The notes beneath the pieces were generated by a model that worked only from the letters and a program-made list of their open reading frames with translations, had not been told where the DNA came from and ran no database searches. This document shows positions 6,001-52,319 of a stretch of 64,000 bases of DNA, one piece after another. The DNA lies in contig OZ024740.1 in NCBI GenBank assembly GCA_964016885.1, positions 432,326,001 through 432,390,000 on the forward strand. The letters are read 5' to 3'. This stretch comes from Eledone cirrhosa (Eukaryota). Positions within the stretch are counted from its first letter, which is position 1, and each line of letters opens with the position of its first letter. The position numbers and the translations under genes are program-made.

Positions 6001-9000
6001 GGGTGACAAGGTACGGCCAACTGGTCAGACTTGTCTCATGAAGCGGGTGACAAGGTACGGCCAACTGGCCAGGCTTGTCTCATGATATGGGTGACAAGGT
6101 ACGGCCAACTGGCCAAACTTGTCTCATGATGTGGGTGACAAGGTACGGCCAACTGGCCAGACTTGTCTCATGACGTAGGTGACAAGGTACGGCCAACTGG
6201 CCAGGGTTGTCTCATGACGTAGGTGACAAGGTACGGCCAACTGGCCAGACCTGCCTCATGACTTGGCTGACAAGGTATGGCCAACTGGCCAGACCTGTCT
6301 CATGACGTGGGTGACAAGGTACGGCCAACTGGCCAGACCTGTCTCATGATGTGGGTGACAAGGTACGGCCAATTGGCCAGACTTGTCTCATGACTTGGCT
6401 GACAAGGTATGGCCAACTGGCCAGACCTGTCTCATGACGTGGGTGACAAGGTACGGCCAACTGGCCAAACTTGTCTCATGACGTGGGTGACAAGGTACGG
6501 CCAACTGGCCAGACTTGTCTCATGACATGGGTGAAAAGATATGGCCAACTGGCCAGGCTTGTCTCATGACGTGGGTGACAAGGTACGGCCAACTGGCCAG
6601 GCTTGTCTCATGACATGGGTGACAAGGTACGGCCAACTGGCCAGACCTGTCTCATGACGCGGGTGACAAGGTACGGCCAACTGGCCAGACTTGTCTCATG
6701 ACGTAGGTGACAAGGTACGGCCAACTGGCCAGACCTGTCTCATGATGTGGGTGACAAGGTACGGCCAACTGGCCAGACTTGTCTCATGACGTGAGTGACA
6801 AGGTACGGCCAACTGGCCAGACCTGTCTCATGACGTGGGTGACAAGGTACGGCCAACTGGCCAGGGTTGTCTCATGACGTGAGTGACAAGGTACGGCCAA
6901 TTGGCCAGACTTGTCTCATGACGTAGGTGACAAGGTACGGCCAACTGGCCAGACCTGTCTCATGATGTGGGTGACAAGGTATGGCCAATTGGCCAGACCT
7001 GTCTCATGACGTGGGTGACAAGGTACGGCCAACTGGCCAGACCTGTCTCATGATGTGGGTGACAAGGTACTGCCAACTGGCCAGACTTGTCTCATGACGT
7101 GAGTGACAAGGTACGGCCAACTGGCCAGACCTGTCTCATGATGTGGGTGACAAGGTACGGCCAACTGGCCAGACTTGTCTCATGACGTGAGTGACAAGGT
7201 ACGGCCAATTGGCCAGACTTGTCTCATGACGTAGGTGACAAGGTACGGCCAATTGGCCAGACTTGTCTCATGACGTAGGTGACAAGGTACGGCCAATTGG
7301 CCAGACTTGTCTCATGACGTAGGTGACAAGGTACGGCCAACTGGCGAGACTTGTCTCATGACGTGAGTGACAAGGTACGGCCAACTGGCCAGACCTGTCT
7401 CATGACCTGAGTGACAAGGTACGGCCAATTGGCCAGACTTGTCTCATGACGTAGGTGACAAGGTACGGCCAACTGGCCAGACCTGTCTCATGACATGGGT
7501 GACAAGGTACGGCCAATTGGCCAGACTTGTCTCATGACGTAGGTGACAAGGTACGGCCAATTGGCCAGACTTGTCTCATGACGTTGGTGACAAGGTACGG
7601 CCAATTGGCCAGACTTGTCTCATGACGTGAGTGACAAGGTACGGCCAACTGGCCAGGCTTGTCTCATGACGTGGGTGACAAGGTACGGCCAACTGGCCAG
7701 ACTTGTCTCATGACATGGGTGACAAGGTACGGCCAACTGGCCAGGGTTGTCTCATGACGTGGGTGACAAGGTACGGCCAACTGGCCAGGGTTGTCTCATG
7801 ACGTGGGTGACAAGGTACGGCCAAATGGCCAGACTTGTCTCATTACGTGGGTGACAAGATACGGCCAACTGGCTAGGGTTGTCTCATGACGTGGGTGACA
7901 AGGTACGGCCAACTGGCCAGGCTTGTCTCATGACGTGGGTGACTTGGTACGGCCAATTGGCCAGACTTGTCTCATGACGTGGGTGACAAGGTACGGCCAA
8001 CTGGCCAGGGTTGTCTCATGACTTGGGTGACAAGGTACGGCCAACTGGCCAGGTTTGTCTTATGACGTGAGTGACAAGGTACGGCCAACTGGCCAGACTT
8101 GTCTCATGACGTGGGTGACAAGATACGGCCAAATGGCCAGACTTGTCTCATGATGTGGGTGACAAGGTACGGCCAACTGGCCAGACTTGTCTCATGATGT
8201 GAGTGACAAGGTACGGCCAATTGGCCAGACTTGTCTCATGACGTAGGTGACAAGGTACGGCCAATTGGCCAGACTTGTCTCATGACGTAGGTGACAAGGT
8301 ACGGCCAATTGGCCAGACTTGTCTCATGACGTAGGTGACAAGGTACGGCCAATTGGCCAGACTTGTCTCATGACGTTGGTGACAAGGTACGGCCAATTGG
8401 CCAGACATGTCTCATGACGTGAGTGACAAGGTACGGCCAACTGGCCAGGCTTGTCTCATGACGTGGGTGACAAGGTACGGCCAACTGGCCAGACTTGTCT
8501 CATGACATGGGTGACAAGGTACGGCCAACTGGCCAGGGTTGTCTCATGACGTGGGTGACAAGGTACGGCCAATTGGCCAGGGTTGTCTCATGACGTGGGT
8601 GACAAGGTACGGCCAAATGGCCAGACTTGTCTCATGACGTGGGTGACAAGGTACGGCCAACTGGCCAGGCTTGTCATGACGTGGGTGACTTGGTACGGCC
8701 AATTGGCCAGACTTGTCTCATGACGTGGGTGACAAGGTACGGCCAACTGGCCAGGGTTGTCTCATGACGTGGGTGATAAGGTACGGCCAACTGGCCAGGG
8801 TTGTCTCATGACGTGGGTCACAAGGTACGGCCATCTGGCCAGACCTGTCTCATGACGTGAGTGACAAGGTACGGCCCAATGGCCAGACTTGTCTCATGAC
8901 GTGGGTGACAAGGTACGGCCAACTGGCCAGGGTTGTCTCATGACGTGGGTGACAAGGTACGGCCAATTGGCCAGACTTGTCTCATGACGTGAGTGACAAG

Positions 9001-12000
9001 GTACGGCCAAATGGCCAGACTTGTCTCATGACGTGGGTGACAAGGTACGGCCAACTGGCCAGACTTGTTTCATGACGTGGGTGACAAGGTACGGCCAATT
9101 GGCCAGACTCGTCTCATGACGTGGGTGACAAGGTACGGCCAATTGGCCAGACTTGTCTCATGACGTGAGTGACAAGGTACAGCCAACTGACCAGACTTGT
9201 CTCATGACATAGGTGACAAGGTACAGCCAACTGGCCAGACTTGTCTCATGACGTGGGTGACAAGGTACGGCCAATTGGCCAGACTTGTCTCATGACGTGA
9301 GTGACAAGGTACGGCCAACTGGTCAGACTTGTCTCATGACGTAGGTGACAAGGTACGGCCAACTGGTCAGACTTGTCTCATGACGTGAGTGACAAGGAAC
9401 GGCCAATTGGCCAGACTTGTCTCATGACGTGAGTGACAAGGAACGGCCAATTGGCCAGACTTGTCTCATGACGTGAGTGACAAGGTACGGCCAATTGGCC
9501 AGACTTGTCTCATGACGTGAGTGACAAGGTACGGCCAACTGGCCAGACCTGTCTCATGACGTTGGTGACAAGGTACGGCCATCTGGCCAGACCTGTCTCA
9601 TGACGTGGGTGACAAGGTACGGCCAATTGGCCAGACTTGTCTCATGACGTGGGTGACAAGGTACGGCCAACTGGCCAGGCTTGTCTCATGACGTGAGTGA
9701 CAAGGTACGGCCAATTGGCCAGACTTGTCTCATGACGTAGGTGACAAGGTACGGCCAATTGGCCAGACTTGTCTCATGACGTAGGTGACAAGGTACGGCC
9801 AATTGGCCAGACTTGTCTCATGACGTAGGTGACAAGGTACGGCCAACTGGCGAGACTTGTCTCATGACGTGAGTGACAAGGTACGGCCAACTGGCCAGAC
9901 CTGTCTCATGACCTGAGTGACAAGGTACGGCCAATTGGCCAGACTTGTCTCATGACGTAGGTGACAAGGTACGGCCAACTGGCCAGACCTGTCTCATGAC
10001 ATGGGTGACAAGGTACGGCCAATTGGCCAGACTTGTCTCATGACGTAGGTGACAAGGTACGGCCAATTGGCCAGACTTGTCTCATGACGTTGGTGACAAG
10101 GTACGGCCAATTGGCCAGACTTGTCTCATGACGTGAGTGACAAGGTACGGCCAACTGGCCAGGCTTGTCTCATGACGTGGGTGACAAGGTACGGCCAACT
10201 GGCCAGACTTGTCTCATGACATGGGTGACAAGGTACGGCCAACTGGCCAGGGTTGTCTCATGACGTGGGTGACAAGGTACGGCCAACTGGCCAGGGTTGT
10301 CTCATGACGTGGGTGACAAGGTACGGCCAAATGGCCAGACTTGTCTCATGACGTGGGTGACAAGATACGGCCAACTGGCTAGGGTTGTCTCATGACGTGG
10401 GTGACAAGGTACGGCCAACTGGCCAGGCTTGTCTCATGACGTGGGTGACTTGGTACGGCCAATTGGCCAGACTTGTCTCATGACGTGGGTGACAAGGTAC
10501 GGCCAACTGGCCAGGGTTGTCTCATGACTTGGGTGACAAGGTACGGCCAACTGGCCAGGCTTGTCTTATGACGTGAGTGACAAGGTACGGCCAACTGGCC
10601 AGACTTGTCTCATGACGTGGGTGACAAGATACGGCCAAATGGCCAGACTTGTCTCATGATGTGGGTGACAAGGTACGGCCAACTGGCCAGACTTGTCTCA
10701 TGACGTGAGTGACAAGGTACGGCCAATTGGCCAGACTTGTCTCATGACGTAGGTGACAAGGTACGGCCAATTGGCCAGACTTGTCTCATGACGTAGGTGA
10801 CAAGGTACGGCCAATTGGCCAGACTTGTCTCATGACGTAGGTGACAAGGTACGGCCAATTGGCCAGACTTGTCTCATGACGTTGGTGACAAGGTACGGCC
10901 AATTGGCCAGACATGTCTCATGACGTGAGTGACAAGGTACGGCCAACTGGCCAGGCTTGTCTCATGACGTGGGTGACAAGGTACGGCCAACTGGCCAGAC
11001 TTGTCTCATGACATGGGTGACAAGGTACGGCCAACTGGCCAGGGTTGTCTCATGACGTGGGTGACAAGGTACGGCCAATTGGCCAGGGTTGTCTCATGAC
11101 GTGGGTGACAAGGTACGGCCAAATGGCCAGACTTGTCTCATGACGTGGGTGACAAGGTACGGCCAACTGGCCAGGCTTGTCATGACGTGGGTGACTTGGT
11201 ACGGCCAATTGGCCAGACTTGTCTCATGACGTGGGTGACAAGGTACGGCCAACTGGCCAGGGTTGTCTCATGACGTGGGTGATAAGGTACGGCCAACTGG
11301 CCAGGGTTGTCTCATGACGTGGGTCACAAGGTACGGCCATCTGGCCAGACCTGTCTCATGACGTGAGTGACAAGGTACGGCCCAATGGCCAGACTTGTCT
11401 CATGACGTGGGTGACAAGGTACGGCCAACTGGCCAGGGTTGTCTCATGACGTGGGTGACAAGGTACGGCCAATTGGCCAGACTTGTCTCATGACGTGAGT
11501 GACAAGGTACGGCCAAATGGCCAGACTTGTCTCATGACGTGGGTGACAAGGTACGGCCAACTGGCCAGACTTGTTTCATGACGTGGGTGACAAGGTACGG
11601 CCAATTGGCCAGACTTGTCTCATGACGTGAGTGACAAGGTACAGCCAACTGACCAGACTTGTCTCATGACATAGGTGACAAGGTACAGCCAACTGGCCAG
11701 ACTTGTCTCATGACGTGAGTGACAAGGTACGGCCAACTGGCCAGGCTTGTCTCATGACGTGGGTGACAAGGTACGGCCAACTGGCCAGACTTGTCTCATG
11801 ACATGGGTGACAAGGTACGGCCAACTGGCCAGGGTTGTCTCATGACGTGGGTGACAAGGTACGGCCAACTGGCCAGGGTTGTCTCATGACGTGGGTGACA
11901 AGGTACGGCCAAATGGCCAGACTTGTCTCATGACGTGGGTGACAAGATACGGCCAACTGGCTAGGGTTGTCTCATGACGTGGGTGACAAGGTACGGCCAA

Positions 12001-15000
12001 CTGGCCAGGCTTGTCTCATGACGTGGGTGACTTGGTACGGCCAATTGGCCAGACTTGTCTCATGACGTGGGTGACAAGGTACGGCCAACTGGCCAGGGTT
12101 GTCTCATGACTTGGGTGACAAGGTACGGCCAACTGGCCAGGCTTGTCTTATGACGTGAGTGACAAGGTACGGCCAACTGGCCAGACTTGTCTCATGACGT
12201 GGGTGACAAGATACGGCCAAATGGCCAGACTTGTCTCATGATGTGGGTGACAAGGTACGGCCAACTGGCCAGACTTGTCTCATGACGTGAGTGACAAGGT
12301 ACGGCCAATTGGCCAGACTTGTCTCATGACGTAGGTGACAAGGTACGGCCAATTGGCCAGACTTGTCTCATGACGTAGGTGACAAGGTACGGCCAATTGG
12401 CCAGACTTGTCTCATGACGTAGGTGACAAGGTACGGCCAATTGGCCAGACTTGTCTCATGACGTTGGTGACAAGGTACGGCCAATTGGCCAGACATGTCT
12501 CATGACGTGAGTGACAAGGTACGGCCAACTGGCCAGGCTTGTCTCATGACGTGGGTGACAAGGTACGGCCAACTGGCCAGACTTGTCTCATGACATGGGT
12601 GACAAGGTACGGCCAACTGGCCAGGGTTGTCTCATTACGTGGGTGACAAGGTACGGCCAATTGGCCAGGGTTGTCTCATGACGTGGGTGACAAGGTACGG
12701 CCAAATGGCCAGACTTGTCTCATGACGTGGGTGACAAGGTACGGCCAACTGGCCAGGCTTGTCATGACGTGGGTGACTTGGTACGGCCAATTGGCCAGAC
12801 TTGTCTCATGACGTGGGTGACAAGGTACGGCCAACTGGCCAGGGTTGTCTCATGACGTGGGTGATAAGGTACGGCCAACTGGCCAGGGTTGTCTCATGAC
12901 GTGGGTCACAAGGTACGGCCATCTGGCCAGACCTGTCTCATGACGTGAGTGACAAGGTACGGCCCAATGGCCAGACTTGTCTCATGACGTGGGTGACAAG
13001 GTACGGCCAACTGGCCAGGGTTGTCTCATGACGTGGGTGACAAGGTACGGCCAATTGGCCAGACTTGTCTCATGACGTGAGTGACAAGGTACGGCCAAAT
13101 GGCCAGACTTGTCTCATGACGTGGGTGACAAGGTATGGCCAACTGGCCAGACTTGTTTCATGACGTGGGTGACAAGGTACGGCCAATTGGCCAGACTCGT
13201 CTCATGACGTGGGTGACAAGGTACGGCCAATTGGCCAGACTTGTCTCATGACGTGAGTGACAAGGTACAGCCAACTGACCAGACTTGTCTCATGACATAG
13301 GTGACAAGGTACAGCCAACTGGCCAGACTTGTCTCATGACGTGGGTGACAAGGTACGGCCAATTGGCCAGACTTGTCTCATGACGTGAGTGACAAGGTAC
13401 GGCCAACTGGTCAGACTTGTCTCATGACGTAGGTGACAAGGTACGGCCAACTGGTCAGACTTGTCTCATGACGTGAGTGACAAGGAACGGCCAATTGGCC
13501 AGACTTGTCTCATGACGTGAGTGACAAGGAACGGCCAATTGGCCAGACTTGTCTCATGACGTGAGTGACAAGGTACGGCCAATTGGCCAGACTTGTCTCA
13601 TGACGTGAGTGACAAGGTACGGCCAACTGGCCAGACCTGTCTCATGACGTTGGTGACAAGGTACGGCCATCTGGCCAGACCTGTCTCATGACGTGGGTGA
13701 CAAGGTACGGCCAATTGGCCAGACTTGTCTCATGACGTGGGTGACAAGGTACGGCCAACTGGCCAGGCTTGTCTCATGACGTGGGTGGCAAGGTACGGCC
13801 AACTGGCCAGGGTTGTCTCATGACGTGGGTGACAAGGTACGGCCAATTGGCCAGACTTGTCTCATGACGTGGGTGACAAGGCACGGCCAACTGGCCAGGG
13901 TTGTCTCATGACGTGGGTGACAAGGTACGGCCAATTGGCCAGGCTTGTCTCATGACGTGGGTGACAAGGCACGGCCAACTGGCCAGGGTTGTCTCATGAC
14001 GTGGGTGACAAGGTACGGCCAACTGGCCAGGGTTGTCTCATGACGTGGGTGACAAGGTACGGCCAACTGGCCAGACTTGTCTCATGACGTGAGTGACAAG
14101 GTACGGCCCAATGGCCAGACTTGTCTCATGACGTGGGTGACAAGGTACGGCCAACTGGCCAGGGTTGTCTCATGACGTGGGTGACAAGGTACGGCCAATT
14201 GGCCAGACTTGTCTCATGACGTGAGTGACAAGGTACGGCCAAATGGCCAGACTTGTCTCATGACGTGGGTGACAAGGTACGGCCAACTGGCCAGGGTTGT
14301 CTCATGACGTGGGTGACAAGGTACGGCCAAATGGCCAGGCTTCTCTCATGACGTGGGTGACAAGGTACGGCCAAATGGCCAGGCTTCTCTCATGACGTGG
14401 GTGACAAGGTACGGCCAACTGGCCAGGGTTGTCTCATGACGTGGGTGACAAGGTACGGCCAACTGGCCAGGCTTGTCTCATGACGTGGGTGACAAGGTAC
14501 GGCCAACTGGCCAGGGTTGTCTCATGACGTGGGTGACAAGGTACGGCCAATTGGCCAGACTTGTCTCATGACGTGGGTGACAAGGTACGGCCAACTGGCC
14601 AGGGTTGTCTCATGACGTAGGTGACAAGGTACGGCCAACTGGCCAGACCTGTCTCATGACGTGGGTGACAAGGTACGGCCAATTGGCCAGACTTGGCTCA
14701 TGACGTGGGTGACAAGGTACGGCCAACTGGCCAGGCTTGTCTCATGACGTGGGTGGCAAGGTACGGCCAACTGGCCAGGGTTGTCTCATGACGTGGGTGA
14801 CAAGGTACGGCCAACTGGCCAGACTTGTCTCATGACGTGGGTGATATGGTACGGCCAACTGGCCAGGGTTGTCACATGACGTGGGTGACAAGGTACGGCC
14901 AACTGGCCAGGGTTGTCTCATGACGTGGGTGACAAGGTACGGCCAAATGGCCAAACTTGTCTCATGACGTGGGTGACAAGGTACGGCCAACTGGCCAGGG

Positions 15001-18000
15001 TTGTCTCATGACGTGGGTGACAAGGTATGGCCAAATGGCCAGGCTTCTCTCATGACGTGGGTGACAAGGTACGGCCAACTGGCCAGGGTTGTCTCATGAC
15101 GTGGGTGACAAGGTACGGCCAATTGGCCAGGGTTGTCTCTTGACGTGGGTGACAAGGTACGGCCAACTGGCCAGGGTTGTCTCATGACGCGGGTGACAGG
15201 GTACGGCCAAATGGCCAGACCTGTCTCATGACGTGGGTGACAAGGTACGGCCAACTGGCCAGACTTGTCTCATGACGTAGGTGACAAGGTACGGCCAATT
15301 GGCCAGACTTGTCTCATGACGTAGGTGACAAGGTACGGCCAATTGGCCAGACTTGTCTCATGACGTAGGTGACAAGGTACGGCCAATTGGCCAGACTTGT
15401 CTCATGACGTGAGTGACAAGGTACGGCCAACTGGCTAGACCTGTCTCATGACGTGGGTGACAAGGTACGGCCAACTGGCCAGACTTGTCTCATGATGTTG
15501 GTGACAAGGTACGGCCAACTGGCCAGGCTTGTCTCATGACATAGGTGACAAGGTACGGCCAACTGGCCAGACTTGTCTCATGATGTTGATGACAAGGTAC
15601 GGCCAACTGGCCAGACTTGTCTCATGACGTAGGTGACAAGGTACGGCCAACTGGCCAGGGTTGTCTCATGATGTGAGTGACAAGGTACGGCCAACTGGCC
15701 AGGCTTGTCTCATGACGTGGGTGACAAGGTACGGCCAACTGGCCAGGCTTGTCTCATGATGTGGGTGACAAGGTACGGCCAACTGGCCAGGCTTGTCTCA
15801 TGACGTAGGTGACAAGGTACGGCCAATTGGCCAGACTTGTCTCATGACGTAGGTGACAAGGTACGGTCAACTGGCCAGGCTTGTCTCATGACGTGGGTGA
15901 CAAGGTACGGCCAACTGGCCAGGCTTGTCTCATGACGTAGGTGACAAGGTACGGCCAACTGGCCAGGCTTGTCTAATGATGTGGGTGACAAGGTACGGCC
16001 AACTGGCCAGACTTGTCTCATGACGTCAGTGACAAGGTACGGCCAACTGGCCAGACCTGTCTCATGACGTAGGTGACAAGGTACGGCCAACTGGCCAGGC
16101 TTGTCTCATGATGCGAGTGACGAGGTACGGCCAACTGGCCAGACCTGTCTCATGACGTAGGTGACAAGGTACGGCCAACTGGCCAGACTTGTCTCATGAC
16201 GTGGGTGACAAGGTACGGCCAACTGGCCAGACCTGTCTCATGACGTAGGTGACAAGGTATGGCCAACTGGCCAGACTTGTCTCATGATGTTGGTGACAAG
16301 GTACGGCCAACTGGCCAGACCTGTCTCATGACGTGGGTGACAAGGTACGGCCAACTGGCCAGGCCTGTCTCATGACGTAGGTGACAAGGTACGGCCAACT
16401 GGCCAGACTTGTCTCATGATGTTGGTGACAAGGTACGGCCAACTGGCCAGACTTGTCTCATGACGTAGGTGACAAGGTACGGCCAACTGGCCAGGGTTGT
16501 CTCATGACGTGAGTGACAAGGTACGGCCAACTGGCCAGACTTGTCTCATGACGTGAGTGACAAGGTACGGCCAACTGGCCAGACTTGTCTCATGACGTAG
16601 GTCACAAGGTACGGCCAACTGGCCAGACTTGTCTCATGACGTGAGTAACAAGGTACGGCCAACTGGCCAGACTTGTCTCATGACATAGGTGACAAGGTAC
16701 GGCCAACTGGCCGGGGTTGTCTCATGACGTGAGTGACAAGGTACGGCCAACTGGCCAGGCTTGTCTCATGACGTGGGTGACAAGGTACGGCCAACTGGCC
16801 AGGCTTGTCTCATGACGTGGGTGACAAGGTACGGCCAACTGGCCAGGCTTGTCTCATGACGTGGGTGACAAGGTACGGCCAACTGGCCAGGGTTGTCTCA
16901 TGAAGTGAGTGACAAGGTACGGCCAACTGGCCAGACTTGTCTCATGACGTGAGTGACAAGGTACGGCCAACTGGCCAGACTTGTCTCATGAAGTGAGTGA
17001 CAAGGTACGGCCAACTGGCCAGACTTGTCTCATGAAGTGAGTGACAAGGTACGGCCAACTGGCCAGACCTGTCTCATGACGTGGGTGACAAGGTACGGCC
17101 AACTGGCCAGACTTGTCTCATGACGTGGGTGACAAGGTACGGCCAACTGGCCAGACTTGTCTCATGACGTAGGTGACAAGGTACGGCCAACTGGCCAGAC
17201 TTGTCTCATGACGTAGGTGACAAGGTACGGCCAACTGGCCAGACTTGTCTCATGATTTTGATGACAAGGTACGGCCAACTGGCCAGACTTGTCTCATGAC
17301 GTAGGTGACAAGGTACGGCTAACTGGCCAGACTTGTCTCATGATGTTGGTGACAAGGTACGGCCAACTGGCCAGACCTGTCTCATGACGTGGGTGACAAG
17401 GTACGGCCAACTGGCCAGACTTGTCTCATGATGTTGGTGACAAGGTACGGCCAACTGGCCAGACCTGTCTCATGACGTGGGTGACAAGGTACGGCCAACA
17501 GGCCAGACTTGTCTCATGATGCTGGTGACAAGGTACGGCCAACTGGCCAGACCTGTCTCATGACGTGGGTGACAAGGTACGGCCAACTGGCCAGACTTAT
17601 CTCATGATGTTGGTGACAAGGTACGGCCAACTGGCCAGACTTGTCTCATGGCGTCAGTGACAAGGTACGGCCAACTGGCCAGACCTGTATCATGACGTGT
17701 GTGACAAGGTACGGCCAACTGGCCAGACTTGTCTCATGACGTGGGTGACAAGGTACGGCCAACTGGCCAGACTTGTCTCATGGCGTGGGTGACAAGGTAC
17801 GGCCAACTGGCCGGGGTTGTCTCATGACGTGAGTGACAAGGTACGGCCAACTGGCCAGGCTTGTCTCACGACGTGGGTGACAAGGTACGGCCAACTGGCC
17901 AGGGTTGTCTCATGACGTGAGTGACAAGGTACGGCCAACTGGCCAGACTTGTCTCATGACGTAGGTGACAAGGTACGGCCAACTGGCCAGGGATGTCTCA

Positions 18001-19181
18001 TGACGTGAGTGACAAGGTACGGCCAACTGGCCAGACTTGTCTCATGAAGTGAGTGACAAGGTACGGCCAACTGGCCAGACTTGTCTCATGACGTAGGTGA
18101 CAAGGTACGGCTAACTGGCCAGACTTGTCTCATGATGTTGGTGACAAGGTACGGCCAACTGGCCAGACCTGTCTCATGACGTGGGTGACAAGGTACGGCC
18201 AACTGGCCAGACTTGTCTCATGATGTTGGTGACAAGGTACGGCCAACTGGCCAGACCTGTATCATGACGTGGGTGACAAGGTACGGCCAACTGGCCAGAC
18301 TTGTCTCATGACGTGAGTGACAAGGTACGGCCAACTGGCCAGACTTGTCTCATGACGTGAGTGACAAGGTACGGCCAACTGGCCAGACTTGTCTCATGAC
18401 GTAGGTGACAAAGTACGGCCAACTGGCCAGACTTGTCTCATGATGTTGGTGACAAGGTACGGCCAACTGGCCAGACCTGTCTCATGACGTGGGTGACAAG
18501 GTACGGCCAACTGGCCAGACTTGTCTCATGATGTTGGTGACAAGGTACGGCCAACTGGCCAGACCTGTATCATGACGTGGGTGACAAGGTACGGCCAACT
18601 GGCCAGACTTGTCTCATGACGTGAGTGACAAGGTACGGCCAACTGGCCAGACTTGTCTCATGACGTGAGTGACAAGGTACGGCCAACTGGCCAGACTTGT
18701 CTCATGACGTAGGTGACAAAGTACGGCCAACTGGCCAGACTTGTCTCATGACGTGGGTGACAAGGTACGGCCAACTGGCCAGACTTGTCTCATGACATTG
18801 TTGACAAGGTACGGCCAAATGGCCAGACTTGTCTCATGACGTAGGTGACAAGGTACGGCCAACTGGCCAGACTTGTCTCATGACGTCAGTGACAAGGTAC
18901 GGCCAACTGGCCAGACTTGTCTCATGACGTGGGTGACAAGGTACGGCCAACTGGCCAGACTTGTCTCACGAAGTGGGTGACAAGGTACGGCCAACTGGCC
19001 AGACTTGTCTCATGACGTGGGTGACAAGGTACGGCCAACTGGCCAGACTTGTCTCATGACGTGGGCGACAAGATACGGCCAACTGGCCAGACTTGTCTCA
19101 TGACGTGGGTGACAAGGTACGGCCAACTGGCCAGACGTGTCTCATGACGTGGGCGACAAGATACAGCCAACTGGCCAGGCT
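1..19181. repeat. 44-bp tandem satellite (consensus acttgtctcatgacgtgggtgacaaggtacggccaactggccag), ~435 copies, open at left window edge
   Basis: Direct 44-bp periodicity throughout, with rare 42-bp units (ttgtcatgac at 8671, 11177, 12759). Ends at the junction with LINE sequence at ~19181. Confidence 0.99.
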
Positions 19182-22100
19182 CCGTCCATGTTTTTTGTGG
19201 TCTACCTCTACCACGTCTCCTTCAGCTGGCATTTCCTGGCACTTCTTCACCCATCGGTCATCCTCCATGCGCATCACATGTCCATACCACCTCAGTCTCC
19301 TCTCCCGTAGACTACATTCTATCCCTCTCAGACACAGTTTCTCTCTCAACACATTCATGCTGGGTCATTCACGCACATTGACACTGCACATCCAACGGAG
19401 CATGCTTGCCTCATTTCTCTCCAGCCGTTGCACATCCTCTGCAGTTGCTGCCCATGTCTCACTACCATACAACATCGCGCTCCTCACATAGGCATCATAT
19501 AACCGGCCTTTCGTACGCAGGGAGAAACCCTTCTCCGTCAGCAGAGGAAGCAGCTCCCTAAACTTCTTCCAACCCGTCCTTATTCTATGGCCTCGGAACA
19601 CTCCCATCCCATGCTAATCTGATCTCCGAGGTACCAGAAGCTATCCACCACTTCTATAGCACCCGCCTGCATTTGAAAAATGCGTCTATCAAAGCGACTT
19701 CTACTGTCTAATTTCCCTGTACATCTACTGCATACATATTTCTCCCTACCTGTTAGTTTGCCTGCTATCACGCTACAACTCTTGTGTACCCAGGATCTGC
19801 ATTGTGTGCATTTTATAGAATGTATGCCAGTTTCTTTTCTGCATATCGAACATGGCCATTTCCCTGACGGAATCAGGGTTTTGTCCTCTTTTCTACTCAA
19901 CACTTTTGTCTTAGCTACACTGTGTAGATTCACTCTCAGTCCTCTTGCTTCCAACTGCTGTTTCCATAGCCAGAATTTATTCTCTAGCTCCTCTACTGAT
20001 TCTGCTACAAGAACCAGCTCGTTAGCATAGAGAAGTTCCCATGGACAGCCAGTCTTAAACTCTTCTATTATGGCTTGGAGGACTATAATGAACAAGAGCG
20101 GGCTGAGGAACGAACCTCGATGTACTCCTACTTGTATCTGGAATTCCTCACTAAACTCCATTCCTACCTTGACTTTACTGACAGTACCTCTGTACAAAGT
20201 TTGCACTGTCCTCACAAGCCATTCCTCAACACCTAGTTTCCTTAGGGACCACCAGATGACAGATCGGGTTACCCTATCAAAGGCCTTCTCTAGGTCAACA
20301 AAGGCTAAGTATAGTGGCTTATTTTATCTAATAACCTCTCTTGCAATTGTCTCACCAAGAAGAGGGCATCTGTTGTACTCTTCCCAGGCACAAAACCAAA
20401 CTGCATCTCATCTAGTTTGACCCTTTCTCTAATTAGTTGTGCTAATATCCTTTCTGCCACTTTCATAACCTGATCCAACAGTTTTATAGCCCTATAATTG
20501 CTCCTCTCCAGAGCATCCCCTTTACCTTTGTAGCAATTTATGAGAATACTGCTGCACCAGTCTTTGGGTATGACACCACCATATATAGCCTGATTGATGA
20601 TGTGTGCCACCACTTTAGTGCCTACGTCCCCTGATGCCTTCAGCATCTCAGCAACTATTCCCGATGGTCCAGCAGCCTTACCATTTTTCATTTCCTTAAT
20701 CGCCTCTTGGACCCTATATTCGTCAATCTCAATAGCTGGTCCCTCTGTCGGATCTACTGAGGGTAATTTCTCTCTCTCCCATTCATTCTCCACATTCATC
20801 AGTCTCTCATAATGACATTTCCAGGCCTCCTTTTTCTGATCATTCGTGACACTAAGTACACCGGCATCGTTCCGGACACATTTATCTCCAACAACATCCT
20901 GATTTGCATTGACACACTGCCTTGCAATGTGGAACACCGCACACCTCTGATCTTCCCGTCGCAGAACATTGGCAAACCTCCTACTCTCAGCCTCCCTGCG
21001 TGCTAAGTACACCTGACGTCTAGCTTCTCTCTTAGCGGCTGTATATTCTTCCCTACTCCCACCCTTTTTTTTCCAAGCCTTCCATGCTAGTCTTTTGTCT
21101 CTAATGGCCTTATCTACTATGCTGTTCCACCACCAGGTCACTATCTGTCTGGTTGGAGCTCTGCTCCAGCCACAAGTTTCATCAGTAGCCTGCAGTAAGT
21201 TGTCATGTAAGAAATTCCAGTTATTATCTATGTCATACGTCTCTAAATTGTCTTTTTTTTGTCATACACATCTTGAAGGGCTTTCCTAAATTTGTATTTT
21301 AGTGAAAGGTCTTTTAGCTTCCAGACCTTTCTTCTCCACACCTTCCTGTATGTCTCATTCCATCTCTTGCTTACTGAGATATCACTAACGACTAACCTAT
21401 GCTGTGGGGTACAATCTGGCTTATGTGCTCGCCAGATTTGTAGGTTATTAGGTGGTTGGCAGGTTTCTGGAAGTTTGTGTTGCAAATAGTCAGTGTACTT
21501 GCATCTCAAAATTCAAGAAGTTTCACTCCATTTCTTGAGCCATAACCGTGCCCACTATGTATCCCAGTGTAACCATCCTGGAACTGTCCAACATGACCAT
21601 TGAAGTCCCCTGCTAGCATAACGATGTCTCCGTCCCCTGTCATTGCGGTTGTTTGTAAAAGTTGCTCGTAAAAGCAGTGTTTCTCATATTTGCCTCGGCC
21701 TGCTTGGGGAGCATAGGCAGAGATGATTGTCAGTAGACTCCTGCCTACAACTAATCTAAGCTTAATTATTCGATTACTAACTCGAACTACCTCTATTGTC
21801 TTATTGATCCATCTCTCAGCCAGGAAAATGCCTACTCCCCCTAACCCATCATCCTTACCTACCCAGAAAAGCTTATAGCTAAGATGTTTGCCTACGACTA
21901 GTCTCGCAGAGGCACCTCTCCATCTCACCTCTTGCATGCAGCACACATCCACATGCCTTCTCTCCAGCATCTCCGCTATTTCAGCAGATCTACCTCTGAG
22001 AGTGCCAACATTAAGTGTTGCAACTCTGAGATGCGACGTCTTCATATTTTGTTGTTGTTCCTATCTATTTGTTGCTGTGCTGATAAGCGTTTTGGCATTG

Positions 22101-22965: not shown

Positions 22966-23501
22966 TGAAATCTGGTCGCATCCACTGAGATATATATACA
23001 CACACATACACATATATACATATATATATATATATGTATATATATACACATACATCATAGGAGTTAGCAGTTTGTCAACAGGTCAGCCAGCTTAGATAGG
23101 GTAATGAGTTATGTGGTGATGGTGGGAGCCGAGTGTAGACGTTATTGTTATTGTGGTGGTGGGGGCAGTGAGATGTACAAGTTCATAGTTCACTTGTTCC
23201 TTTTTTTCCCGTCTCTTTTCAAAATTTGAATTTATGGCCTTTTGCAATGGCAGACAAGTAAGCATAAAATGTAAATTTTTTTTAAAATAGAGATTGCTCT
23301 GGAATTCTCAGAACGTTTCCTGGCTTCCAATGAGCAAAAATTATTGTTGTATTTTGGTCTTTCAGAATACGAAAATTAATAAAAACTTACCCCCACGAAA
23401 AACCGTGAGCTCCCTATATATAATGTGATGTATTTAAATAACAATAAAAATAGTTGAGATATCAACATGAAAGTATAATCTCTCTTATTAAAAGTGTTTA
23501 C

Positions 23502-23672
23502 CTCGAAATAACTGTACTTGTACATGTTGCCACCAGTAAGACGACACAGTTCACCAATAGTAGCTATATCAACATAAGAATTAGGGAACAGGAATAGATC
23601 AACACTACAACCAGCTGTAACACATTGTTGTCCAAGTTTGGTGTAGAAATTTCCATGAGGGGTGAGAAGTGT
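23502..23672 (-). CDS. SEC24C: SEC24C/D coding exon 13 (TLLTPHGNFYTKLGQQCVTAGCSVDLFLFPNSYVDIATIGELCRLTGGNMYKYSYFE), trunk domain
   Basis: Manual translation; ttttttag acceptor, gtaaac donor, 171 nt, phase 0/0. GCSVDLFLFP..YVD.AT and TGG motifs of the Sec24 trunk. Confidence 0.93.
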
Positions 23673-23860: not shown

Positions 23861-24004
23861 AATCCATTGTTATTTTGGTAAGGTGTGTCAAGTTCGATGC
23901 ATTATTGAAGTTGACAGCATGCAGGAATCCATGTCAAAGGTGTACTCCAATGAGTTATAATACTGGTAGATGAAAACAGTGAAAGCCACAGAGCATAAAT
24001 AATC

Positions 24005-24210
24005 AATACAAAAGGAAAACCAAGGTTGTTATTCAAATTCCATCTTTAATTTCTACAATTGTTTCTATAGAGATAAATATAGTGCCAGTATACAAAACCA
24101 ATCAATTAATTGATTGATTCTGTATGCTGGTCCTATATTTATCTCTGTAGAAACAATTATAGAAAGTAAAGATGGAATTTGAATAATAATCTTGGTTTTC
24201 CTTTTGTATT
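24005..24210. repeat. ~206-bp imperfect palindrome with no spacer
   Basis: aatacaaaaggaaaacc... pairs with ...ggttttccttttgtatt; centre aatcaatt|aattgatt at 24107/24108. Confidence 0.93.
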
Positions 24211-24442
24211 AACTATAAACATTTTCCTTTTTTCCAATTTGAGAGAAGCATCACCATTGTTTGACTATAAGAAATGATCTAAGGTAGTGCTGTACACTTT
24301 TTTCCATCTTCAGCGTTTATATGTCCAACTTAGATTATTTTTCATAGTCAAACAATGTTGTTGCTTCTTTCAAATACAAAAAAACTTCCTATCACTGAAT
24401 GGTTCTAAAAATAGATTGTGTGTGTATGTGTACATAATGCAT

Positions 24443-25488
24443 ACCAGATAGAAAAATGCGTACACCAAAAAAAAGTAATATTGTTGGAATATAAACCTTT
24501 AAAAATACAGGACAAGAAACTAAAATAAAACTTTAAAAGAATAGAACAAGAAACTAAGATAAAACTTTAAAAGAATAGGACAAGAAACTAAGATAAAACT
24601 TTCAAGAATTGGACAAGAAATAAAAAATTTTACAATAATATTAGTGGCAAAATTTTTATTGGTAAAAAATCGAGTTCCACATTCATAGGCTCTGGGTTCC
24701 ACATTCAGAGGTCGTCGTCAGACCGGGGTGATCATTTGATCCTGGTTTGAACACCAATTGGGCCATAACCATACCCCTATTTCATCATTCGGCGACACGC
24801 CTCATGTGTCATGCATAATGTGAATGGACCCATGGGCCCAGATCTTGAGCAGCAGTGGAGGGTCTTGTTGTCCCACTCATCCTTGATCTTGACCAACCCG
24901 TCCATCTTCTCCTTGAGTTCAAGTCCGACAGTCCAGATGAATGCGTGCCACAGCTTTCTGGTGCAGGAAAGGGGAACAGGAGGACTGGAGGGATGATGGG
25001 ACAGAGGGAGGGAGGACCGGTGGTTGAGGGAGGTGCCGTAGTCAGTGGTCAGAGTCGACATCTTGTCCTGGTCGTCTTCTCCATCTTCGTCTGGTGTTGC
25101 GGGACCAGAATTGCATTCTTAGAGGAGACCTGCAGCTGCATCGGCCAATTCTTCTTGCAATGGTCATTCTGACGGAGCAGAACTGCTCAGCCAACCAACC
25201 CCAACCAGAACCAGAACCAACCGCTCAGGGGCAACGCACAATGAGAGCATGACAATTATTATGCACTAATCAAGAAGATACTGGGGCATAGCACAGGAAA
25301 CGAATAAAAAAATTTTGCCACTAATATTATTGTAAATTTTTTTATTTCTTGTCCAATTCTTTAAAGTTTTATCTTAGTTTCTTGTCCTATTCTTTTAAAG
25401 TTTTATCTTAGTTTCTTGTCCTGTATTTTTAAAGGTTTATATTCCAACAATATTACTTTTTTTTGCTGTACGCATTTTTCTATCTGGT
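24443..25488. repeat. Inverted repeat (arms 24443-24660 and 25303-25488) enclosing a GC-rich ~640-bp core
   Basis: Arms are near-identical reverse complements containing ~34-bp subrepeats (ggacaagaaactaagataaaactttaaaagaata); the left arm has one more unit. Confidence 0.93.
24661..25250 (-). pseudogene. Possible decayed ORF of unknown function inside the inverted arms
   Basis: GC-rich coding-like composition. The 94-aa ORF 24777-25061 continues past stops as GYGYGPIGVQTRIK*SPRSDDDL*MWNPEPMNVELDFL, then AATAAA. No family recognised. Confidence 0.35.
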
Positions 25489-25761
25489 TTACTATTTTTT
25501 AAGGCAATGCAAGCAACAACTATCTAATAATTAAATGATCATAGTGAATTACTGACAAGTGATTGACATTTTAAAGTTCTTTTGAGTATAATTGCAATCT
25601 AGTTGAGGCAACTGGCTTAATGACAAAGCTAGTAAATCATGAATGCATTTGAGATGATTAGTGCATAATAGTGAATTGGTGAAACTTGTGCATTTCAACG
25701 GTGTTACAACAATAGATGTAAGTTATATAGTAGTAATACTTTATCATTTCAACTTTTTAGA

Positions 25762-26121
25762 ATGGACAAAAACCCATGCAAAGAAATGACTTTGACTGCA
25801 GTGATTCTCTCCAATTTACTTACAAAGCAAAACGTGGTCAAATACCTTATCATCTCTGATAAAATGCCCATTGAATCACTGAAAATCGGATGCATGGAAT
25901 TCCTCATACAATGCACCTATGAATCGGAAGCCATCACATATATCAATGGATATAGGGAGTTGTTCACACTGGAAGACCATCACTTCATTTGTGACTTCAT
26001 CAGTTATCTCCACGAGTATCTCAGACACCCAATGCCATTGATGAGAGGTGATCCAATGTGTGAGCATGTAACTAATCTTATAGAAGTTGTTATCGACCAC
26101 CTGGCTTTTAGTGACATTTGA
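25762..26121 (+). CDS. 119-aa ORF with a BACK/SPOP-C-terminal-like motif, antisense and nested in a SEC24 intron
   Basis: LTKQNVVKYLIISDKMPIESLKIGCMEFLI resembles the BACK pattern (N...L..AD....L+..C++FI). Upstream GTAAGT (25718)..TTTTTAG (25760); downstream AATAAA at 26207. Confidence 0.5.
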   Translation: MDKNPCKEMTLTAVILSNLLTKQNVVKYLIISDKMPIESLKIGCMEFLIQCTYESEAITYINGYRELFTLEDHHFICDFISYLHEYLRHPMPLMRGDPMCEHVTNLIEVVIDHLAFSDI

Positions 26122-26733
26122 CTGATTTGACTGATAATGATGTATTTTTAAAAAGTATGTGTACATTCTTGTTACTATTTTAAGGCAATGCAAGCAACAA
26201 CTATTTAATAAAATTTAAATTTAAAAATGACCATTGTGCATTACTAGTATGATGACATTTTATTAAGTCACAAAATTAGTCAGTCAGCCATAGAACAAGG
26301 ATCAGGTGGCAAAAACATTGGCAAAAATTTGTGTCAATTTAAGATTTCCAACATTGTTCAAATGAATCATATCTGGTTTGAAGTCAGATTTGTCAAATTT
26401 TGACCAATTTTCAATGTTGTGAAGATTGGGCAAGTTCAATTTTTGAATCATTTCTTTCATGCAGTAATTAAACTTTTCCAAACGTCGTCATTTCTGGATT
26501 ACCTCCCCTAGCGTCACGCTTACTACACACTCACTTGAACACAAGATTTATCAGCAAACTTTGATTATAAGCTTTTTCCCGCTGGACCAAATTTTTAGAT
26601 TTTTAAGCCAAAAGATGCGTAATGATCTACTGTTCATGCTCATATAAGTTTTATCTCAGTTAAATAAAGTAGAGCCGCGCTGTACTATCGTAAACAGACG
26701 ATTGCCAACGAAAACACGACCACAACAATATTA

Positions 26734-26757
26734 CTAAACGGACTACCGTCCGTTTAG
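26734..26757 (+). other. Perfect 10-bp stem/4-nt loop hairpin (ctaaacggac-tacc-gtccgtttag), candidate terminus of a Helentron/HINE-like element
   Basis: Hairpin seen directly; preceded by a CpG-containing tract (acagacg..acacgaccacaacaata). The element assignment is inference. Confidence 0.45.
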
Positions 26758-28699
26758 GATATCCATTAAATAATGCAAAACTAAAACTGATAATAGATAC
26801 AATAGCTGTCATGTATTTTTTAAACAAGATAACCATGTTAAGACATATTTATAAAGCAGATATTAGTAATGACAAACATTGTATAATAATGAAGAAATAT
26901 TTCAATATATCAAGCCTTAAAGATAACTTTCTATCTAACCTTTCAATACATATATTGAAAGGTTACAAGTTTAACCTTTTTCTATCTGGAATGGTTTTCC
27001 AGTGATTCCATTATCAAGACAGACCAACAGTTGCCAGTGGACTCTCAGAAGTTTCTGTATAAGGACAGTTTAATTAACTGTTATATTCCCTCAATATGTT
27101 ACAATAACAATCAACTTATGCTTCAAATTTAAAATATAAATGACCAAGCACTCAATATATAAAGACACAAAGCCAATAACAAAATAAAATAAAAGGAATT
27201 ATATTTTTGAAAAGTCAATATAAATTGTTCTTATAAGATGTAAATTATAATTATATTTCATAATTATAATTATATTTCTCTTCTGATTAATAATTTATAC
27301 TTACATCAAATTTCCATAATTAAATAGCAAATATTTTATGAAGCTACCAGGAGATAATTCAAATAACAAAGATGGAAAGGAAGAGGTACACAGTTAATGA
27401 ATGGTCTGGTACTTATGCTATAGATAGGGGGAGGGCTGAATGGCACTGATGATCCAGATAGGATTTGAACTCAGGATGTAAAGAGTTTGAACTACACACT
27501 ATAAGATATTTATTTCATAGCTCTCTTTTCTACCACTACTTTTATCTGGCAATAAATAAGGTAAGACACCCAAGGAAGCAGTAAAATCCACTGCAACACT
27601 TATTAGCAATATTATAACTAGGTAAGATATTTAATGAATTGAAATAGTGAGTAGTGTTTGAAGTGCATGCTTGGTCCCATAACTCCTGAGGGAGTTGTAA
27701 AGATGCCATATTAACATAGTGATTCAAGCACATTTTAAAACCTGGTGGAGCCCATCTCTTCTTCAGGTCTGAATACAGCAGATTTCTTCCAGAGAAGGAT
27801 AAAGAGTGAGAGAGAATGGAAGTGAGAAAGAGATGTAGAGGAAGAATCAACCCCAGTACTAGACTGGTACTTTTTTTATCAACCACAAAAGGATGAAAAG
27901 TAAAGTTCACCTCAACAGAGAGCAAAGAACCAAAATGAATACCACAAAGCATTCTGACATTCTATCAACTCTGCCAATTTGCTGCCTTATATTTAAAATA
28001 GAATGATTAAAAGTAGCTGAAATAATGCATATATATATATATTAATTCATGCAGCAGTCATTCCTTTATTTTTGGGGTTAGTCTAATAAGGATGCTTCAT
28101 CACCAAATTATAGAATTCAGCTGAGCTAGAATATAACTAATATTTCACTTTAGTTTAAATATAAAATTCTATTGAGAAAAAAAAAAAAAAAGAAATTGTT
28201 AGTCTTTAAAATGATTTAATTCATAATTTGATTAAAACGATGCCTTAAAATAAATAAACTATCATCTTAAGATTCTGAGCTTCACAAAGATGACAAAGGA
28301 CATAGATATTTAGCGACATGCCATATTGAAGAAGATCTAACCATTCATCCATGCAAGAATAGTGAAAATGATGCTAATGATAGTGACTGCTATGTATAAC
28401 ATATTTACATTAAGTCTGTTGCCCATTATGTGTAAAATTTACATCTGTCGCCACTCCAATCTCTTTGATACCCTCGTATTTGTATCATTCACCTAATCAC
28501 TTCTCCACTCTACCATATCACACCTGTAATGGGGGAATGACATTTGTCCATATTTAAACCCTGCCCCTCACTACCATCAACCCTATTATCCTCTATTATC
28601 TACTCACTCCAATTAATGTTTCTCTAATCATACTTTGGCTTATTTCACTCTCTCCCTACAGATCATCTTCAGTCATCATCTTTTCATGTTGGTCATATT

Positions 28700-29045: not shown

Positions 29046-29996
29046 ATGCCTTGGTCAAATGGAAACAACCTAGAGTAGTTAGGACTCATCAGTCTTGCTG
29101 TGTCCAAGACAACCACACCAGTGCTGGTGCCATGATAAATGAATTCTCTGTAAAGTGGAGACATCATACGGTTGAAGACACTTTAGTTTTACCAAGGACA
29201 TGACAACTTCTCTAGTGTTGGTACCATGACAAAATGTACCCAGTACACTCTGTAATGTTTTTTGGTGTTAGGAAAGACACCCAGCTATAGTAACCCCACC
29301 AAAAATGGAACACACTAATAAACCTTGACACACTGACATGTCAAGGAGAGCAGTAACTCTGAGACAGTAATGACCCATCCAACCCATGCTAGAATAGAAA
29401 GAGGAAGTAAAATGATGACAATGATGATGATGATGATTCATATTTCACACCTCATATTCTGACTTGAAAAGAGAAAATGAAGGAGAAATAGGAAAACCCA
29501 GTAGACAAGAGGGGGCAAAGAAAGTCCCGAAACCCAAAATGACTTTTTACTTAATATCCAATACCAAATAGAAATAAAGATAAACAAAAACTAGATGAGA
29601 TATGTATACCTTTATATCAGTGGCATTTATCTACAAACAAAAATAAATGTTATCAAATTAAATACGGCTTTCTTCTCTGTGTGAGTGTGTGTGTGTGTGT
29701 TTATCAGTGTGTCTGCATGCTCCTGCATACAGCTATAAAGATTAAACTAGAATTAGTTATCTATTATTTTAACAAAATAAAACTAACATATTACTTGTTA
29801 GATCTAAATATAGAAAGTATCCAGGTAAAACCATTCTAGAAGAGTTTTCAGAATAAATTAAACTGAAAATAAAAATAACTTTCTGGAGAATCTAATAAAA
29901 ATTAAATCTGTTGTAAAATAATTACTGTAAAAAGGTAAATAACATTGGATACAACTTTGACTAATGATAAACGGAACTATATTTTTCAATAATTAC

Positions 29997-30207
29997 CTTC
30001 TCTTTGTCGGTACCCAGAAGTTTTCTGTCATCCCGATTCTTTAATTTTCCAGGAACTTCAGCAACAGGCAGTGACGTATGGAAAAGAATAAGTTTTCCAG
30101 CACAGTCAGCATTGATCAAAGCTTCCAGTCCAGCTTGGATAACTGGACCTAATACCACTTCAGTTTCTCTGGATTCTCCAAACATCTGAGGTATTTGTGA
30201 GAGCAAA
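29997..30207 (-). CDS. SEC24C: SEC24C/D coding exon 12 ([49 protein letters not shown])
   Basis: Sec24C/D trunk motif [18 protein letters not shown]; ttttcag/gtaatt sites; phase 2/0. Confidence 0.96.
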
Positions 30208-30654
30208 CTGAAAATATAAGAAATTATATCAATCATTTAAAGTCTTTAATTTAAATACATTTCTGCTTTCATCAAATAATTACACAAGGTGTCGTAGTCT
30301 ATATTATGTGGCTTACTACTTTGATTATTTTCCATCTAAATCTGAACTGGCTGATGTCTTCAACGAGGTCATACACCACTGATATGTTACTTTAGATAGC
30401 AGCAACAAGTAATTTGGAACAAACATTCCCTGCTTATGTTCTTCCCCATCAAACCTGGACCTCTCAACTCCAGGAGAGACCTGGAAAATATCATGGGTAC
30501 TCCTTCACCATTTTTGGAAATTATAAAGACTTTCATAATTATTCTACAAAAGATTGCATGTTACCAGAGTCAAGATAAACCAAACCCCTTAACACAAATA
30601 GATAAGATAGACCATGTAAATGAAACTTCAATGTCTTTCTTTCTTTATATATAT

Positions 30655-51630: not shown

Positions 51631-52319
51631 TGTGGGAACATAATTGATAGTCATTCTATTTTACACTTAAGAACATTTATATCCTTTTACTGTGTAATTA
51701 AGAAGCCACAGTGACATAGCTCTAAGTTTAAACTGTGCACCACCTTGGGTGAGCACTATTTTCCGTAGCCTTGAGTTAGATTGGGGAGGGGGGACTGAGT
51801 AAATGCAAACTGTGCAGATGCCCATTAGATGAACTGTACATATTCTTTAGTAATGAACTTAATGATTTAGCAGAGTTCTCTCTATTGTAAGTATCTGGAG
51901 CAGGCCTCTAGTTTGAGGATTATTTATCTAGGTATCTTCTAACTGACCCTTACTAATCAAAGATGACCTATAAAAGAATGTCAAATAATTCACCGATCCT
52001 CCTCTGGCTAAACCATAACAATTAATAAAAAATAAAAAAACAAGACAAAATAGATTTCAGTAGAGACAACAATCCTGTTTCTCAACCTTAAACACTTTGC
52101 AATATCTCTGCATAGTTTTAGTGAAATAAGTTTCTATTTTTAAATACCACCAAATGCTGTGAGAAATAATCCCACAAACATTAATGCTATATTTCGGTTT
52201 CCCATGTTTAATTTACAACAGAAGAGTACATTTTTATACTAATTTCAGTTTAGAAAACAAACATTTTAAGAAGACTTTGTGGATATAAAAGCAAAGAAAT
52301 AAAGAGTGAATAGAGTTAC

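Follow-up and report, generated by a model that had tools for sequence, protein, structure and literature searches.

An HLE2-clade Helitron in Eledone cirrhosa with an inverted internal copy of its 3′ terminus

The locus

The DNA analyzed here, referred to as the window, is a 64,000-nucleotide stretch of the Eledone cirrhosa genome (GCA_964016885.1, contig OZ024740.1, positions 432,326,001 to 432,390,000 of the forward strand). A gene of the Sec23/24 family lies on the minus strand, and one of its introns is home to a transposable element, also on the minus strand, whose features are collected in Table 1. It derives from an HLE2-clade Helitron by deletion, is non-autonomous, and has two long inverted arms: one is its 3′ terminus, the other an internal copy of that terminus in inverted orientation. 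An earlier note, made from the sequence alone, had described a composite intronic island at 24420..26770 and attributed it to promoter and terminator cassettes reused for small cargo genes in a rolling-circle or virus-derived element. The intronic position was borne out by Sec23/24 trunk exons on both sides. An element does occupy the island, but its true ends are 24444 and 26759.

Table 1. Features of the element and of the flanking host gene (window coordinates).
Feature	Position	Strand	Evidence or remark
Host Sec23/Sec24-trunk exon, downstream of intron	23496..23672 (lower bound approximate)	-	PF04811, E 3.6e-18
Whole non-autonomous Helitron-like element, 2316 bp, 5′-TC...CTGG-3′	24444..26759	-	Common ends in 30 copies, terminal tallies
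Outer arm: true 3′ terminus, ends CTATCTGG before T	24444..24657	-	4 tandem 34-bp units; no short terminal hairpin
Subterminal repeat in outer arm	24474-24486	-	
Payload A, about 650 nt, about 51% GC	24658..25307	-	Unrelated to payloads B and C
Second 16-mer, at payload start	25257..25272	-	
Inner arm: inverted copy of 3′ terminus, including CTGG (25485-25488) and the next T	25308..25488	+	3 tandem 34-bp units
Subterminal repeat in inner arm	25445-25457		
Flanking sequence of inner arm	25489..25530	+	Once in family B, doubled around ORF2 module in family A
16-mer TGATTAGTGCATAATA upstream of ORF2	25655..25670	+	
Putative 43-nt 5′ untranslated region intron, GTAAGT...TTTAG, ending one base before ORF2 ATG	25718..25760	+	Sequence-inferred; unchanged in 56/61 distinct contexts
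ORF2, 119 aa, antisense to RepHel	25762..26121	+	Family A only
Second copy of inner-arm flanking direct repeat	26172..26211	+	
Approximate deletion junction	26476..26484	-	Alignment to autonomous copies; loose contig ends at 26484/26485
5′ subterminal inverted repeat, 13 nt, directly after hairpin	26723..26735	-	
5′ end: TC and perfect hairpin (26734-26757), 10-bp stem, GGTA loop	26734..26759	-	
Open frame with host Sec23/Sec24-trunk exon, upstream of intron	29964..30236	-	PF04811, E 5.2e-19

Ends and copy number

Read on the minus strand, the element follows an A, opens with TC and the hairpin, and closes with CTATCTGG in front of a T, with no target duplication. A search of its own genome gave 937 first-look candidates, 40 of which were scored, and most of the best copies spanned 24441-24443 to 26760-26762 of the window at 93-97%. 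The two end positions were set from the flanks of 30 fetched loci. No target duplication was found in the flanks of 30 copies, and two of the loci (L009 and L019) are clean insertions into tandem repeats. Among the loci collected, A precedes 75/75 distinct 5′ ends and TC opens 71 of these 75, and CTGG or CTAG followed by T closes 107/112 outer ends. Exact genome-wide sites numbered 439 for the 26-nt 5′ end shared by family A, to which the window copy belongs, and family B (some B copies carry several such ends); an arm 18-mer had 965 and the 16-mer 750. From these counts the copy number is put at several hundred. The genome-wide comparison suggested in the earlier note returned a repeat family with common boundaries. 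In L238 and other family B copies there are multiple tandem 5′ ends with repeated 5′ hairpins, an arrangement reported for the FoHelis (PMC5148889).

Autonomous parents and classification

Parents were reached by tracing copies whose hairpin end met other DNA. They are 10-12 kb long with the same two ends, and their RepHel runs from the hairpin end toward CTGG and carries DUF6570 (PF20209, E 2.5e-18), Helitron_like_N (PF14214), PIF1 and a C-terminal UCH protease. The earlier note had recommended looking for Rep or helicase genes in longer copies, and these parents supply them; its rolling-circle origin stands on their HLE2 RepHel, and no support was found for a viral origin. Relative to its parent, the window copy has lost RepHel-UCH: the first ~280 bp are joined to the last ~2040 bp. 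In L181, a minimal copy, half of the 5′ hairpin is joined directly to the fold-back cassette. Long open reading frames (ORFs) of 11 long copies, some of them Pfam-scanned, were read as RepHel-UCH or as belonging to flanking long interspersed elements (LINEs). The RepHel N-terminal frames at L162:3692-5863 and L083:1955-3697 contain ‘GCVELNPGP’, which is close to the 2A ribosome-skip motif. Full-length relatives of the DUF6570/Rep/PIF1/UCH architecture occur in Rhodnius and in metagenomes.

DUF6570 is a marker of HLE2, and UCH marks HLE2 subgroups c/d (PMC11417382). In Rep domain trees (quick trees and FastTree, built without curated references, with HLE1 represented by the genome's top PF14214 elements by score and motif), the parents stood apart from the genome's top-scoring canonical Helitrons and grouped with DUF6570-bearing proteins; the quick trees placed RepHel outside the HLE1 clade. 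Near-identical canonical Helitron Rep genes (L088-L115, in G000 C16, C19, C20 and C27) are clustered ~100-200 kb apart and on small contigs.

An autonomous partner with Rep (HUH) and PIF1 helicase shares both ends, as in Helitron-like elements generally. The terminal signals are of HLE1 type (5′ TC, 3′ CTRR, insertion between A and T), and the short hairpin that HLE1 elements have about 11 nt before the 3′ end was not found in the last 60 nt of families A, B and C. When folded, these 60 nt reached only -1.5 to -4.5 kcal/mol, and the whole cassette formed one long stem at -256. Short asymmetric terminal inverted repeats of HLE2 type are present (a 13-mer at 26723 and 24474, with counterparts in families C and D). 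The target between A and T and the stem-loop 5′ of RepHel depart from the usual HLE2 form and match the proto-Helentron/HLE2-reverse layout, in which a 5′ stem-loop stands upstream of the left inverted repeat, there is no 3′ stem-loop, and RepHel is of the HLE2 type. A Helentron was rejected: no apurinic/apyrimidinic (AP) endonuclease (Exo_endo_phos) is fused to RepHel in the scanned frames, one of four family-B RepHel frames lying outside the scan, and the C-terminus is UCH. A Replitron, defined by Rep without helicase and by direct terminal repeats (PMC10288648), was rejected on the presence of PIF1. A ribozyme-bearing Penelope element was dropped because there was no Rfam match.

The fold-back arms

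The ~200-bp inverted arms were confirmed at 94-98% complementarity (24443-24657 versus 25308-25488), the 3′ terminus being duplicated in inverted orientation ~650 nt upstream of the outer arm. They are not terminator cassettes as proposed but the 3′ terminus and an inverted duplicate of it, and the perfect hairpin, present with its 10-bp stem, marks the 5′ end relative to RepHel. An AATAAA does stand at the inner end of each arm (25303 on the plus strand, 24655 on the minus strand) in AT-rich DNA, but the pair counts as a single observation because the arms copy each other. The direct repeat at 25489 and 26172 was likewise found, with 34 nt matching at 97% and 96 nt at 76%.

Both arms are present in 52/60 family A and B elements traced from the first 100 arm sites. 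By hand count, 78 of these sites fall into 39 pairs; of the 22 left unpaired, 21 were fetched, 13 having a mismatched partner arm and 8 being single-armed. None of 97 arm pairs is a free-standing cassette: the element continues on one side of 94 pairs and on both sides of one, and 5′ parts of the element remain attached to the last two. The payload is flipped in 2/125 A/B copies. In one family A copy (L011), the outer arm overruns CTGG by 84 nt that mirror the inner flank. Copies with 3/4 repeat units form no clade, and arm lengths within family A alone correlate at rho 0.32, a first pooled value having been inflated by family B.

Families B and C

Three related families in the genome hold the fold-back around unrelated payloads of 650-850 nt. 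Payloads A, B and C have no convincing similarity (best A/B score 50, shuffled maximum 45), so the suggested check on variable cargo came out positive at the level of families. Family B (RepHel 85% at the nucleotide level) has the same fold-back, ending CTAG, around a different GC-rich payload. Its 5′ hairpin carries a compensatory change, and B-specific changes sit in both arms in 29/29 copies. It is very young, with payload proteins 99-100% identical over 45 copies. A PHD-like pattern noticed by eye in payload B had no Pfam support, and searches gave no longer homologs and no source outside the element in the E. cirrhosa genome.

Family C (66% at the nucleotide level) begins with 5′ TC and has a different stem around the same GGTA loop (AC-GGTA-GT core). 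The fold-back is present in 9/10 RepHel-bearing loci, and the tenth stops inside UCH. A short element sits at one same AT-rich site of the family C arms, in the inner, the outer or both arms depending on the copy.

A distant family with variable ends

An alignment search of GTDB contigs led to RepHel loci in two bacterial bins, G001 and G002. The G001 stretches are likely eukaryotic DNA inside a bacterial bin because 14% of their bases lie in long frames. Both bins (L259-L263, L287-L321) contain contigs that are rich in repeats, poor in coding sequence and carry Helitrons, and that likely represent host DNA within the reference collection. In two of the RepHel relatives (L261 and L263), the stretches examined had neither a clear 5′ hairpin nor a clear fold-back.

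The elements in G001 form a further family, D, with the same 5′ TC and hairpin loop, a fold-back, and outer-arm ends that are specific to each copy. The Rep is 39% identical at the amino acid level, and OTU replaces UCH. In layout, TC follows A and is succeeded by a hairpin with the same AC-GGTA-GT core, a subterminal repeat, and a fold-back at the end. The start pattern has 88 sites, and A precedes 28/28 distinct starts examined. Among 13 copies with long fold-backs, the end point of the outer arm is scattered; the arm is 165-860 nt long and 96-100% identical to the inner arm of its own copy. Of these ends, T comes next in 8 cases, is the last matched base in 4 and stands in neither place in 1. 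The longest arm (L291) mirrors about 650 nt past the usual arm at 100%, and L312 has an outer arm of only 40 nt.

Variant columns were counted after leaving out L289, L292 and L293. Seven short copies, with spacer differences of up to 30%, had 79 in both arms and 13 in one; for three RepHel-bearing copies the figures were 6 and 1. The loop is flipped in 2/10 short copies (L291 and L311). Sibling copies (L307/L308 and L306/L311) share mismatches retained at the loop-side tip, which is where a priming stem would be inherited.

The 16-mers, ORF2 and payload A

The inverted pair of 16-mers is present, and a match of this kind is expected by chance about 0.002 times in 2.3 kb. The claim that each points into an ORF held in part: ORF2 begins 92 nt after the plus-strand 16-mer, but the ATG right after the minus-strand one gives only 26 aa in 49/68 copies and 28 aa in the window. 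Downstream of each family-A 16-mer is a GT...AG segment (lengths in most copies: 43 and 65 nt), with a single base between it and an ATG. These segments would fit 5′ introns, so two small genes in family A are possible. Payload A has a putative intron at 25169-25239, followed by an ATG at 25167. Its commonest long sense frame, of 82 aa, is found in about half of the copies and shortened to 41 aa in the window copy. Contigs of unrecorded kind from four runs contained no joint at either predicted intron and are no evidence on splicing.

ORF2 takes the place of an older spacer in part of family A. Its residues 2-119 had no Pfam match above the cut-off and no homolog in a 5.8-billion set at near lengths or among 1.84 billion representatives; payload A, searched by Pfam scan only, had no homolog. 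A single-sequence fold of ORF2 was unusable (predicted local distance difference test score, pLDDT, 40). Changes over 59 distinct ORF2 sequences are neutral, with 82 nonsynonymous, 33 synonymous and 2 stop changes versus 83, 29 and 4 expected; 9 of the sequences are frameshifted and 2 have stops. Neutral decay of the copies is compatible with a role in the donor and does not exclude one. Note that the frame is open in 146/150 best-scoring matches, a sample that is ranked by score and therefore biased. Reusable promoter cassettes are not supported as the general design of these elements: the B and C copies tested lack the 16-mer, and family-A copies without ORF2 retain it.

Other features of the window

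Two palindromic repeats beside the element are likely miniature inverted-repeat transposable elements (MITEs), one at 23999-24216 with 109-nt arms at 89%, and one at 24228-24384 with 56-nt arms at 84%, where many contigs map. Positions 1-19000 form a long uniform block of about 55% GC and steady skew, likely a tandem array. A broken LINE with endonuclease, reverse transcriptase and a C-terminal PHD finger occupies 19583-22060 on the minus strand. At 49369-51714, a low-complexity repeat has several frames open, and its collagen match is likely compositional.

Formation of the 3′ end

We propose, with a probability of about 0.6, that the fold-back stem serves both as a stop signal and as a template for completing or repairing the 3′ end. 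Re-synthesis is suggested because the outer arms of family D end variably and match their own inner arms at 96-100%, in one case over 860 nt. By analogy with the Helraiser model, RepHel acting in trans would nick between A and TC beside the 5′ hairpin and unwind 5′ to 3′. The released outer arm would snap onto the inner arm to give a ~200-bp stem in place of the missing short 3′ hairpin, and this pairing on the displaced single strand would set the stop point. In families A-C, the strand would be cut between CTRG and T. A 3′ end falling short could be extended on the inner arm, which would restore the terminus, keep the arms alike, and sometimes flip the loop. Family D would have no fixed end, the extended 3′ end being joined to the target wherever synthesis stopped. 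The loop would act as a tolerated slot, its content exchanged in the course of time and under no requirement to be coding.

Several observations weigh against this proposal. The 3′ ends of families A-C are precise, and L172 and L187 have a precise CTGG end before T with no inner arm, while four copies lack the outer arm. In the terminal 68 nt of family A, 1 variant is shared by the arms and 99 are confined to one arm; for family B the figures are 1 and 8, after one family-A copy caught by the filter was dropped. Such single-arm variants are as expected from ageing under either model. Repeat-unit number is unequal between the arms in 27/68 A copies. In family C, a 44-nt insertion and a variant, both confined to the inner arm, are common to two independent insertions (C28c and C28d); the arms can therefore pass down separately, and in the families with fixed ends re-copying does not take place in every round. 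Within family D, many of the 79 shared columns are at subfamily level rather than independent events, the arms of L320 are only 78% alike, and a fold-back above the filter is missing at 9/18 starts matched in 20 sampled stretches. Gene conversion between inverted repeats could be another route to alike arms and flipped loops, and every step of end formation given above is one that we infer.

The best surviving alternative is that the fold-back does no more than stall the helicase, as a giant terminator hairpin, with arms inherited passively and occasionally converted, and with the ragged D ends being premature stops in the stem. The 3′ hairpin of Helraiser is a termination signal whose loss raises truncation and read-through (PMC4778049), and the mostly precise ends of families A-C and the inner-only insertion inherited in two C copies agree with such a role. 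The 860-nt perfect arm of L291 and the 84-nt overrun of L011 are not readily explained by it, however, and repeated truncation would erode the D arms, yet lineages 15-30% divergent in the spacer keep 165-205 nt. We regard this explanation as unlikely, while still taking it seriously.

That the inner arm is a functionless frozen accident, left by an old self-insertion in opposite orientation, is strongly disfavoured. It does end in CTRG and then T like a true insertion junction, single-armed copies exist, and self-insertion has been proposed for the FoHelis (PMC5148889); against this, the fold-back is kept across Reps that are only 39% identical and in two host genomes, and the arms co-evolve while the loop gets replaced. 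Slightly less probable still is selection of the arms as promoter/terminator cassettes for small cargo genes, or for a long hairpin RNA. The two 16-mers of family A, each leading to a GT...AG segment and an ATG one A further on, the 205-aa payload frame kept in 45 near-identical family B copies, and the mostly open ORF2 among the score-ranked matches fit that idea, whereas the absence of the 16-mer from B and C, a payload C of 31% GC with no long frame, the 26 aa from the first ATG of payload A, and an ORF2 with neutral changes and no homologs do not. Finally, a separate terminal-inverted-repeat element (MITE, Pack-type or foldback) nested in the Helitron, which the arm-payload-arm unit resembles in being invertible and about 1 kb long with 200-bp inverted repeats, is refuted by the lack of a free arm pair among the 97, by the outer arm being the Helitron end itself, and by the missing target duplication.

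More tentatively, the proposal of a stem that both stops and templates the 3′ end might be extended to an ancient and widespread HLE2 lineage that self-primes its 3′ end, the displaced strand folding on an internal mirror copy and synthesis regenerating the terminus. If true, this would combine rolling-circle transposition with the end resolution of rolling-hairpin replication, giving a self-repairing end, a protected loop of exchangeable cargo, and ragged-ended elements that current Helitron finders miss.

Comparison with known systems

In the Helitron literature searched, no inverted duplicated 3′ terminus was found; Repbase/Dfam, subscription journals and supplements (HELIANO figures S17-S19, FoHeli tables) lay outside that search. 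Metagenome and viral collections gave no useful relative, and two further papers (PMC13085455 and PMC10288648) describe other designs.

The end design matches two described layouts. Proto-Helentron-Pi/HelenPi572 of Phytophthora infestans (PMC4067079, PMC11417382) is alike in its endonuclease-free, HLE2-type RepHel, CTAG-type 3′ end, insertion between A and T, short inverted repeats, 5′ stem-loop and last ORF on the opposite strand. The elements described here differ in having 5′ TC rather than TT, an animal host, UCH (OTU in family D) at the RepHel C-terminus, a hairpin set 2 nt in from the 5′ end, and a 3′ terminus duplicated in inverted form over 150-230 nt, a feature missing from the available descriptions. 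HLE2-reverse FoHeli3/4/5 of Fusarium oxysporum (PMC5148889, PMC11417382) share a 5′ hairpin, the lack of a 3′ hairpin, DUF6570, a size of 9-11 kb and asymmetric inverted repeats of 13-16 bp. They differ in starting with TGCCT, in ending with CTCCTGT and in having no known target preference, and the duplications described for them repeat the 5′ end in direct orientation rather than inverting the 3′ end. HLE2 subgroups c/d (PMC11417382), compared by description, have DUF6570, Rep, PIF1 and UCH in common, and the available description mentions no fold-back end.

Canonical Helitrons (HLE1, Helraiser; PMC4778049) have 5′ TC, 3′ CTRR, insertion between A and T and no target duplication in common with these elements, but belong to a separate RepHel clade and carry the short hairpin near the 3′ end. 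In Helraiser the left end is essential and the enzyme cuts single strands (PMC4778049). Helraiser, the tested element in the literature consulted, is HLE1. Here, the canonical TC, CTRG and A-T chemistry is found on an HLE2 enzyme, and the hairpin end is therefore indicated as the origin of nicking. The long fold-back, which would substitute for the 3′ hairpin, persists in very distant hosts. If the inner arm does serve to re-synthesise the 3′ end, this would be an end-formation step without counterpart in the literature searched. Replacement of the content of the slot would be a route of cargo exchange distinct from end bypass. The lineage has also spread hundreds of long inverted repeats through introns.

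In parvovirus rolling-hairpin replication, an HUH-helicase protein acts with a self-paired end that primes synthesis and flips the loop. The likeness to the present elements is one of working and not of membership: here there is an integrated transposon with one folded end and a loop of 300-850 nt, in which flips are rare in families A and B.

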